From: Candidatus Bathyarchaeota archaeon RBG_16_48_13
Lineage (GTDB): Archaea > Thermoproteota > Bathyarchaeia > RBG-16-48-13
NCBI GenBank assembly: GCA_001775995.1
Contig: MEZH01000001.1
Coordinates: 32,001-96,000 of the forward strand
Direction: 5' to 3'
DNA length: 64,000 nucleotides
Both the position numbers and the translations under genes were made by a program. Below, piece by piece: positions 4,249 to 25,774 of this stretch; position 1 is the stretch's first letter; every line of letters starts with the position of its first letter. The notes beneath the pieces are model-generated. The model saw nothing but the letters and a program-made list of their open reading frames with translations. It was not told where the DNA came from and made no database searches.

Positions 4249-4338
4249 TGGTGGGGCCGCCCGGATTTGGACCGGAGTCACGTGGGCTCTCGCCAAGTCC
4301 CGAGCCACGTAGCCTAGACCAAGCTAGCCGACGGCCCC
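4249..4338 (-). tRNA. tRNA-Pro(CGG), 12-nt intron at 37/38 (4287-4298), CCA encoded
   Basis: GGGGCCG/CGGCCCC acceptor; CGTGG/CCACG anticodon stem; BHB central helix CTCG/CGAG; T-loop TCCAAAT. Confidence 0.93.
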
Positions 4339-17065: not shown

Positions 17066-17185
17066 ACATGAGAGAACAGATTCAGCAAACCTTTTAAATT
17101 GTTCGCATCCATCACACAACTTACTCTGGACCAGAAAGCGTAGAAACGTTTTCTGGCAAATAGTGTGTGCCGAGGGGCCTTATAG

Positions 17186-17319
17186 GCCGGGGTTGGTCTC
17201 CGACTACCGAAAGCTCAGCCTGGTTAGATGAGTGACCTCAAACCAAAGCGCCAGACCTCTCTATGAGAGGAGCGTTACTCATAATCTGGAGATCGTGGGT
17301 TCGAAACCCACCCTCGGCT
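17186..17319 (+). tRNA. Elongator tRNA-Met(CAT), introns at 8/9 (17194-17211), 22/23 (17228-17246) and 30/31 (17255-17276)
   Basis: Three BHB/relaxed-BHB motifs (CGGG/ACCG, GGTT/AACC, CGCC/AGCG); the spliced product is a 75-nt cloverleaf with CCAGA/TCTGG stem. Confidence 0.85.
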
Positions 17320-18652: not shown

Positions 18653-18882
18653 AGAATCTGAAACCTCGGCTACAGTTAGGAGTATCCTATCCCGGATTAT
18701 GTAATTTCTGGAGTAGTTCTTATAAGCGTAATTTCTTCAAATAAAACATTTCTTGTCAATGGATTCGTTGGGAGAAAATTGGAAAAACATGGGCAATCCA
18801 GTAGGATTGCCGATTTTCGGGGAGGGAAAACATAAAAGCTAATCTATAACCTTCTTGAATGTCAAATGTGCCCCGGCATCGA

Positions 18883-19019
18883 GCCTCGGTACCCAAACCT
18901 TGGGCGAGAGAGCTCAGCATGGTCAGATGCCTTGAGTGCGAAGGCGGGCTAAAGCGCCAGCTTGGTATCCATCAACAAAGAGCTGTAGGTCGCGGGTCCG
19001 AATCCCGCCCGGGGCTCCA
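18883..19019 (+). tRNA. tRNA-Thr(GGT), introns at 8/9 (18891-18910), 22/23 (18927-18952) and 37/38 (18968-18980), CCA encoded
   Basis: Strict BHBs CTCG/CGAG and GGTC/GGCT, relaxed third motif; spliced length 78 nt; T73. Confidence 0.87.
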
Positions 19020-24237: not shown

Positions 24238-24300
24238 AGATGACTAATTTGTGAAAGATCATCACGCATGCGATGCAAGCTTTCTCGCATGTAATTGTAG

Positions 24301-24445
24301 CGGGCCCGACGGGAATTGAACCCGTGACCCCCGGATTTCTTCTTTTCTCATTAAAAGTTTCACCGAAGCGCCATTTTCAGGCGACCTCTCCGATGCTCTT
24401 CCTAGCTGAGCCTCCCGGCCGAAACAAAGATCGGCTTACGGGCCC
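24301..24445 (-). tRNA. tRNA-Lys(TTT), introns at 9/10 (24412-24436), 30/31 (24359-24389) and 37/38 (24337-24351)
   Basis: BHB central helices CCCG/CGGG, CATC/GGTG, CTTT/GAAG; spliced length 74 nt. Confidence 0.9.
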
Positions 24446-24514
24446 ATGGACCCGCTAAGAAGCTTTCTCAAACGGAATCTTCCTAATAACTTTTCCTCTT
24501 CCATTTGTTATAGT

Positions 24515-24553: not shown

Positions 24554-24683
24554 GCCCTGGTAGTATAGCCCGGCCTAGTATGTGCGGCTGAACCCGAAAA
24601 AAGGGTAGCCGAATCACCCGCACGACCCGGGTTCAAATCCCGGCCAAAGGAAAGAAAAGAATCTTTCCTACCGAAGGGCGCCA
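24554..24683 (+). tRNA. tRNA-Asp(GTC), introns at 34/35 (24591-24613) and 68/69 (24647-24675), CCA encoded
   Basis: BHBs CGGC/GCCG and CGGC/ACCG; spliced acceptor GCCCTGG/CCAGGGC, G73. Confidence 0.9.
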
Positions 24684-24769
24684 CACTTTGATAGTGCCGG
24701 GGCTTCGCCATTCCATCAATTGACCGGTTGTCATTTTTATAAGCTCCAAGAGCGATAGATCATTTCCAG

Positions 24770-25774
24770 ATGACGAAAATGGCAACTTTGGGAATAGCGA
24801 TAACTCCCAGTAAGAGTCCATTGGAATATGTTAAGATTGCCCAGTTGTGCGAAACGATGGGTGTAGAATATATCTGGGTGGCTGACGAAATACCTTCTTC
24901 TCCGTATCGAGACCCATTTGTAACTATGACAATCTTAGCCCTGAACACAAAGAAAGTGAAACTTGGCACAGACATCACAAACCCTTACACACGACATCTA
25001 GCACATATTGCCGCGGCGATGTTATCTATAGATGAGATTTCTAATGGAAGAGCCGTAATTGGTCTTGGGCCAGGTGGCTCCCTGACTCTTCAGCCTTTGG
25101 GAATAAGGTTATGGGACAAACCTTTACTAACTGTCAGAGAAGCAGTCAATCTTCTTGGACGACTCGTAAACGGGGAAATCGTAAACCACGATAGCTCCCC
25201 CATGAAAATGGTCAGAGTCCAAATGTTCCGCAAAAGTAAGATTCCTATCTATTTAGCTGCCCGAGGAGAAGGAATGCTGTCTCTTGCGGGCGAGATAGCC
25301 GATGGAGTCCTTCCCACATCTCCAATAAAACTATTGAGGAATCAGGTGAATTTAATAAAGGAAAGTGCTAGGAAAGCAGGTCGCGACATCTCGAAGATTG
25401 ACATAGCAAACACTATACCCCTTTCAGTTTCCATGAATGAAAACCAAGCGCGAGAAGCAATAAAGCCCGAGATAACCTACATGATCACCAATCTTCCAAA
25501 ATCATGGCTTGTACAACTAGACATGAGCGAAAACGAGCAAGAGATTGTTAGAAAAGCCCTCTTCAAGGGAGGAATAATAGAAGCACAAAAGAAGATTAAA
25601 GACAAAATGGTAGACGCTCTCGGAATAGTTGGTACTCCTAAAACTTGCGCACAAAAATTCAGGGAAATGATGAATGCTGGGGCGACCCAAGTAGTCTTGT
25701 CATCACCCTTTGGCCCGGATCTGAAGGAGGCTTTCAATCTCATAAAGGACGACGTTATACCGAGACTTAAATAG
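24770..25774 (+). CDS. LLM-class (Mer-like, probably F420-dependent) oxidoreductase
   Basis: WVADE, LGTDITNPYTRH, SNGRAVIGLG, IYLAA.G, AGEIADG. Confidence 0.85.
   Translation: MTKMATLGIAITPSKSPLEYVKIAQLCETMGVEYIWVADEIPSSPYRDPFVTMTILALNTKKVKLGTDITNPYTRHLAHIAAAMLSIDEISNGRAVIGLGPGGSLTLQPLGIRLWDKPLLTVREAVNLLGRLVNGEIVNHDSSPMKMVRVQMFRKSKIPIYLAARGEGMLSLAGEIADGVLPTSPIKLLRNQVNLIKESARKAGRDISKIDIANTIPLSVSMNENQAREAIKPEITYMITNLPKSWLVQLDMSENEQEIVRKALFKGGIIEAQKKIKDKMVDALGIVGTPKTCAQKFREMMNAGATQVVLSSPFGPDLKEAFNLIKDDVIPRLK

Follow-up and report, generated by a model that had tools for sequence, protein, structure and literature searches.

A leader element in an archaeal tRNA-Lys gene pairs with the 3' acceptor strand and may stand in for the 5' strand while a 9/10 intron is spliced

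In the split tRNAs of Nanoarchaeum equitans and Caldivirga, a GC-rich helix made by leader and trailer sequences holds the pieces together for the endonuclease and the ligase (PMC4090602, PMC4033280). Introns that border or invade the acceptor stem pose a known, little-discussed problem: the splice motif excludes the mature stem, and one of the exons is only a few bases long. In ribosomal RNA processing, the pre-rRNA leader or U3 snoRNA holds segments of 18S/16S RNA before the final helix forms. To our knowledge, no placeholder element of this kind has been described for tRNA introns. The tRNA-Lys(UUU) gene analyzed here is like the three-intron tRNA genes of the Thermoproteales in the number of its introns, and its first intron is, like the non-canonical and multiple bulge-helix-bulge (BHB) introns of archaea, an ordinary hBHBh' motif at a non-canonical site (PMC4090602, PMC4033280). 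Part of its leader additionally copies the 5' acceptor strand; in the texts searched, the archaeal BHB-intron literature covers the introns but no such leader copy alongside introns whose motif uses up that strand (PMC4090602, PMC4033280). Likewise, we found no published description of a leader-encoded acceptor-strand copy acting as a helper element in the openly searchable full texts on disrupted archaeal tRNA genes or in the main reviews. With a probability of roughly 0.6, sequence comparison and folding models together suggest that this leader element is under selection and replaces the 5' acceptor strand temporarily at the RNA level.

The gene is located on the minus strand at 24445-24302 of the window (the whole stretch of DNA analyzed, 64,000 nucleotides), in an archaeal assembly of 0.85 Mb that is 75% complete and whose nearest compared relatives belong to the same order. 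Neither ARAGORN nor an Rfam search at the gathering threshold gave a match at this locus; Infernal scored it at 24.9 bits, under the Rfam gathering cut-off, and at a loose covariance-model threshold the T arm alone was matched. On its sequence, the gene is nonetheless real despite being missed by the standard finders. Reading of the sequence and comparison with relatives showed that it is interrupted by three BHB introns. Exon 1 (24437-24445, 9 nt, positions 1-9, GGGCCCG-U8-A9) matches the 5' end of intron-less tRNA-Lys genes exactly and is followed by intron 1 (24412-24436, 25 nt, position 9/10). Exon 2 (24390-24411) was delimited by comparison with the intron-less gene of locus L008 and contains positions 10-30, i.e., the D arm and the 5' half of the anticodon stem. 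Intron 2 (24359-24389, 31 nt, position 30/31) has the central helix CAUC:GGUG and the bulges GG/A and AA/A, and its position is common to the same-order orthologues L006, L007, L009, L011 and L012. Exon 3 (24352-24358, positions 31-37) carries the anticodon UUU at 24355-24353, and intron 3 (24337-24351, 15 nt) occupies the canonical position 37/38, as it also does in the same-order orthologues. Exon 4 (24302-24336, positions 38-72) includes the T arm, found by covariance models, and the 3' acceptor strand CGGGCCC (24308-24302), found by a script that scanned for acceptor complementarity. The discriminator G73 and the trailer CUA follow at 24298-24301; CCA is not encoded. The gene is contiguous over 24457-24298, so it is a single transcript unit and not two units joined in trans. 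Excision of the three introns leaves a canonical cloverleaf tRNA-Lys(UUU) of 73 nt, with only 4 differences from the intron-less gene of locus L008, and the folding model gave this 73-nt product an acceptor-stem probability of 0.99.

Intron 1 has the features of an archaeal BHB: two 3-nt bulges on opposite strands, a 4-bp helix between them, and flanking helices. [quoted passage not shown] Because every one of the seven 5' acceptor-strand bases is taken up by the motif, the BHB and the acceptor stem are mutually exclusive. Splicing of this precursor by EndA and RtcB is an assumption of our analysis; a search for the splicing endonuclease (PF01974) found none in the 75%-complete assembly, and RNase P RNA is present in the source genome.

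Directly upstream of the tRNA, the element TAGCGGGTCC (24448-24457, minus strand, reading from 24457 to 24448) is followed by the spacer AT (AU in the RNA; 24446-24447, positions -2 and -1) and then by G1 of the tRNA at 24445. In a constrained fold, U-1 of the spacer can pair with A14 and lengthen the outer BHB helix. The partner of the element is GGGCCCGCTA at 24307-24298, which consists of positions 67-72, G73 and the trailer CTA, and together they form a 10-bp helix with 9 Watson-Crick pairs and one G-U pair. The sequence-only reading had described this 10-bp pairing of the leader with the 3' acceptor strand and trailer, and it was confirmed by the sequence and by an independent repeat search, which returned the arms 24298-24307 and 24448-24457 as a 10-nt inverted repeat that is 90% complementary as DNA; the sole DNA mismatch is the G-U pair of the RNA. 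Over the whole window, the motif TAGCGGGYCC matched exactly at these two arms only. The GGGTCC part of the element precedes the true GGGCCC by 8 nt and can pair with positions 72-67 in the register of the true strand, while its TAGC carries the pairing on to positions 73-76. As GGGCCC is palindromic, a local hairpin of 6 bp between the leader and the true 5' strand is also possible. We looked for a BHB at the junction between the leader and +1, through which the endonuclease could remove the leader, and saw none.

The pairing of a single leader is weak evidence when taken alone. The chance that one 35-nt leader forms a helix of at least 10 bp with a 12-nt target was 0.0016 for shuffled leaders and 0.0013 for random genomic 35-mers, which is nothing unusual where a genome has about 40 tRNAs. 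What makes the pairing significant is its recurrence in relatives and in other tRNAs.

To define this recurrence, 401 genomes of the class were searched with a pattern restricted to the 5' strand plus the 3' end of the 9/10 intron. This search found 10 genes in 8 of the 401 genomes, and in 9 of the 10 the leader element lies 6-17 nt ahead of +1. A second scan, over named genomes, whose loci do not overlap those of the class search, added at least 10 archaeal genes, mostly from Bathyarchaeota/Bathyarchaeia MAGs; its pattern was degenerate, and among the matches listed most were random GC-rich bacterial DNA. Four Lys(CUU) genes and three initiator-like tRNAs with A73 are among the added genes. 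We scored each gene by its longest helix between leader and 3' end within 35 nt, and compared tRNAs with a GGGCCCG acceptor stem, the intron-bearing set being drawn from about 17 other archaeal genomes. The median helix was 9 bp in the intron-bearing genes (n = 18), with at least 7 bp in 13 of them, and 4 bp in the controls lacking the 9/10 intron (n = 26), none of which reached 7 bp. The Fisher and Mann-Whitney tests both gave 1.7e-7 for this contrast, a significance that is inflated by kinship among the genes. In-register equivalents of the leader element were present in 17 of 20 related intron-bearing genes. Furthermore, in five same-order orthologues introns 2 and 3 are present and intron 1 and the element are both absent. 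Conservation of the leader, on which the sequence-only reading had made its proposal depend, is therefore observed in 13-17 of the 18-20 genes that have this intron and in 0 of 26 controls.

Could chance complementarity, aided by a GC-rich and palindromic acceptor stem, explain the helix? The single-gene probability of only about 0.0015 and the modest fold z-score of the tRNA-Lys locus (-2.0) would leave room for it. However, the helix recurs in register in independent assemblies and with unrelated acceptor sequences, and is absent from the controls; coincidence is accordingly a highly improbable explanation.

Three of the 20 genes that have the 9/10 intron lack the element (L017/L037, L128 and L136), and in two others (L035 and L116) it is only 6 bp long. 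As judged from these genes, the leader element is not obligatory for the 9/10 intron. Among the intron-bearing Lys genes, the tRNA-Lys(CUU) gene L017/L037 (genome G026) is the one clear case in which a stand-in strand is missing. The leader of this gene contains GCCTGCCGCTT, 19 nt upstream, which is complementary over 11 bp to the 3' strand of the D-stem and the 5' strand of the anticodon stem; about 1% of shuffles (0.013) equal this match, in a type of search, leader against tRNA body with shuffles, that has little power. GCCTGCCGCTT may be an alternative tether. In L069 and L111, the leader from -19 to -9 contains GAGCCTTCGGC, complementary to the 5' strand of the T arm over 11 bp including G-U pairs, and this segment overlaps the start of the stand-in strand.

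Six tRNAs of the source genome have an intron at 8/9 to 10/11: Met, Thr(GGU), Lys, Asn, Gln(UUG) and one class II tRNA. All six carry an in-register upstream copy of 7-10 bp, and their acceptor sequences are unrelated. A copy was found in only one of the 24 other tRNAs of this genome, Gly(GCC) (Fisher 1.2e-5, a significance overstated through kinship). In tRNA-Met (17169-17319, plus strand) and tRNA-Thr(GGU) (18870-19016, plus strand), the upstream copy is fully Watson-Crick with the 3' strand and the true 5' strand has one G-U pair; the Lys genes are reversed in this respect, with the G-U pairs in the copies. A metagenome scan for tRNA-Thr with an 8/9 intron returned at least two real genes, both with an exact upstream copy. 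As a separate observation, the T loop reads TCCRAAT in a number of tRNAs of this genome, among them Thr-GGU, Pro, Ala, Gly-CCC and Val, with C at position 55 as against the near-universal U, and the relatives L039 and L117 share this feature; sites include 18883-19016 (plus strand) and 4249-4338 (minus strand) in the window and C7:106977-107073 in the genome.

The tRNA-Gly(GCC) gene lies outside the window at C7:103245-103381 and has no 5'-proximal intron. Its leader copy, TGCGGTTG, is located 19 nt upstream, pairs over 8 bp, and corresponds to the 5' strand GCGGTCG with a C to T change plus a T facing A73. Either chance or the survival of a stand-in after loss of an intron may account for this copy.

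Leader pairing with the 3' end of a tRNA affects RNase P cleavage in other systems. The helix might accordingly have a general role that is unrelated to introns, such as protection of the 3' end or tuning of RNase P or RNase Z, and the comparable copy of an intron-less tRNA-Gly is what such a role would lead one to expect. Nevertheless, the helix is missing in 26 of 26 intron-less tRNAs with the same stem and in 23 of the 24 other tRNAs of the genome, and where it is present it follows the position of the intron, to the 5' or to the 3' side. We consider a general role improbable.

The divergent neighbor of tRNA-Lys, tRNA-Asp (24554-24706, plus strand), with which it shares a 108-bp promoter region, has an intron inside the 3' acceptor strand, at about 68/69. 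Its trailer contains CCGGGGCTTC, which pairs over 10 bp with GAAGCCCTGG, a segment made up of leader and positions 1-7. We read this trailer element as the mirror image of the Lys leader element. Further downstream, 24824-24886 (plus strand) gave a weak match to the C/D-box sRNA sR11 (15.6 bits, E 3.9) within an open reading frame for a luciferase-like monooxygenase (24770-25774), which is probably due to chance.

Covariation between leader and trailer among relatives had been suggested as a check on the pairing, and it is observed: TAGC in the leader faces GCTA in this tRNA-Lys, and TGGC faces GCCA in others. Complementarity reaches the discriminator and CCA in 11-12 genes. At column 73, C:G pairs occur 11 times and T:A pairs twice, with T facing A73; at column 74, G:C pairs occur 11 times and A:T pairs twice, the genes with T74 carrying A; and at column 75, G:C pairs occur 10 times, with A:T in this tRNA-Lys. 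The leader bases that face G67-G69 are C or T in 47 of 51 cells, indicating that pairing is maintained while the sequence drifts. Spacers vary from 0 to 9 nt, the flanks are unalignable among the intron-bearing relatives, and the upstream copies of relatives are often without G7/U8.

These patterns bear on whether the copy is a neutral relic with no RNA function, left by a tandem duplication or consisting of the old 5' strand after its displacement by intron insertion. A duplication origin is suggested by the copies in other tRNAs, which are exact or near-exact direct repeats (GCCGGGA, AGCCCGG, GCCCCGG(TT) in L165), and the joint gain or loss of intron and copy is as expected from one event. 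On the other hand, because the pairing in the Lys genes extends to the discriminator and CCA/CTA and covaries there, the element is not merely a duplicate of the 5' strand, which could not supply this part. It also persists across several families, although flanks and spacers have diverged past alignment, and the changes within it are almost solely C to T and preserve pairing. We therefore regard a relic as unlikely, though it is the strongest of the rival explanations.

Another explanation takes the upstream copy for the genuine 5' exon and places the proximal strand within a larger or additional intron. The copies in tRNA-Met and tRNA-Thr, as perfect Watson-Crick partners of the 3' strand whose proximal competitors have one G-U pair, would suit this explanation. 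In tRNA-Lys, however, the copy reads GGGTCC and then AU, with G7 missing and U8-A9 out of place, and no BHB can be drawn for an insert of 8 nt. The proximal GGGCCCG-UA with the clean hBHBh' at 9/10 instead gives the 5' end of the intron-less orthologues. An extra intron is thus very unlikely. The sequence-only reading had considered the 8-nt offset too short for an intron, which agrees with spacers of only 0-9 nt, and for this reason had favored a placeholder over an extra intron; the comparison with orthologues supports that preference and leaves the copy as a putative placeholder.

Upstream of the leader element, a candidate BRE/TATA-like promoter element, GGAAAAG-TTATTA, was read from the sequence at 24484-24496 (minus strand), with TTATTA at 24489-24484, GGAAAAG directly before it, and the start of the TATA at -44 relative to the tRNA +1. 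TATA-like boxes (GTTATTAG, GATTATTAG and CTTTATTAG) also precede related genes, whether or not these have the intron, and begin at -35 to -46. Promoters of tRNA genes in Thermofilum pendens lie 30-49 nt upstream of the mature 5' end, and the TATA distances of tRNA-Lys and its relatives fall inside this range (PMC3218864). It had been proposed that this element would start transcription right at the copy, and the spacing is consistent with this, as the leader element begins 28-32 nt downstream of the TATA start, i.e., at the predicted transcription start, in 13 genes. From this spacing, the primary transcript probably starts 2-3 nt before the leader element, and the whole leader is predicted to be the element plus a short spacer. 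The possibility of a more distant promoter in the intron-bearing genes was rejected, as the boxes lie at about -35 to -46 in cases and controls alike.

We modeled the effect of the leader on folding with ViennaRNA and nearest-neighbor energies. With the native 25-nt leader, the probability was 0.00 for the acceptor stem and 0.98 for the central BHB helix; without a leader, the respective values were 0.99 and 0.00, and with shuffled leaders they were 0.81 and 0.03. In constrained folds, the full hBHBh' conformer, in which the leader helix and the T arm were also paired, was ahead of the acceptor-stem conformer by 4.5 kcal/mol when a 14-nt leader was present and behind it by 6.6 kcal/mol when the leader was removed. 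The sign of the energy difference between BHB and acceptor stem was unchanged at 65 C. Among 19 relatives that were modeled, the leader abolished the acceptor stem in 13, and the probability of the central helix exceeded 0.5 in only 8; in the remaining relatives, the model paired the 5' strand with the intron in a slightly shifted register. The leader helix was still favored after all introns had been removed, by 9.8 kcal/mol with the primary trailer, by 3.8 kcal/mol after trimming to G73, and by 6.4 kcal/mol after CCA addition. In these models, nearest-neighbor energies do not explain the return to the cloverleaf; since the leader helix is favored even after splicing, the return must rely on tertiary structure, on proteins or on an irreversible cut.

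If the leader element does stand in for the 5' strand, it would act as follows. In the precursor, the 3' acceptor strand, together with the discriminator and the bases that begin the trailer, would be paired with the leader. The true strand, G1-G7, would thereby be free to pair with the intron (C4-G7:CGGG) and the D-stem (G1-G3:C11-C13), and these pairings would form the BHB that the splicing endonuclease needs for the 9/10 intron. One expected effect is that the very stable GGGCCCG/CGGGCCC stem would no longer outcompete the splice motif. A second is that the cleaved 5' exon, only 9 nt long, would be held to the tRNA body by the 10-bp helix until ligation. Finally, RNase P and 3'-end trimming, which need a real acceptor stem, would be deferred until after splicing, and this would invert the usual archaeal order of processing; a precursor of tRNA-Lys with matured ends would be expected to lock into the acceptor stem. 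Following ligation, the true strand would displace the stand-in, and RNase P would then cut off the leader. In Methanopyrus kandleri, end trimming normally takes place before intron removal (PMC3695527), and an element that blocks the acceptor stem would therefore alter this order.

The leader elements and the mirror-image trailer element may be examples of something broader. We would give even odds to the proposal that stand-in strands are widespread in Thermoproteota, Asgard and DPANN archaea and form a class of cis-acting elements in pre-tRNAs that has so far gone undescribed, near-obligatory with BHB introns that invade the acceptor stem, and serving both as a programmed folding switch and as an exon tether that inverts the order of trimming and splicing. 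If true, a genome-encoded stand-in strand would explain how acceptor-proximal introns are tolerated. It would also provide gene finders with a new signature for hidden tRNA genes, such as the present one, which escapes ARAGORN and Rfam. A stand-in predicts a gene-specific reversal of processing order and would offer a simple natural RNA switch. In addition, it would constrain models of intron gain, as the intron and its stand-in must arise or be retained together.

Among known systems, the helix of the split tRNAs is like that of tRNA-Lys in being a GC-rich helix, supplied by flanking sequence outside the tRNA, that keeps (or, in tRNA-Lys, would keep) tRNA pieces together. However, the split-tRNA helix links two separate RNAs and lies directly against the BHB, and the endonuclease itself cuts it off, whereas the tRNA-Lys helix is formed in cis, lies far from the 9/10 splice sites, has no BHB at its end, occupies the mature 3' acceptor strand and would have to be removed by RNase P. 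The placeholders of pre-rRNA and U3 follow the same logic, in which a stable final helix is kept from forming by a temporary partner while an earlier processing step is completed, but they differ from tRNA-Lys in the RNA, the enzymes and the domain context.
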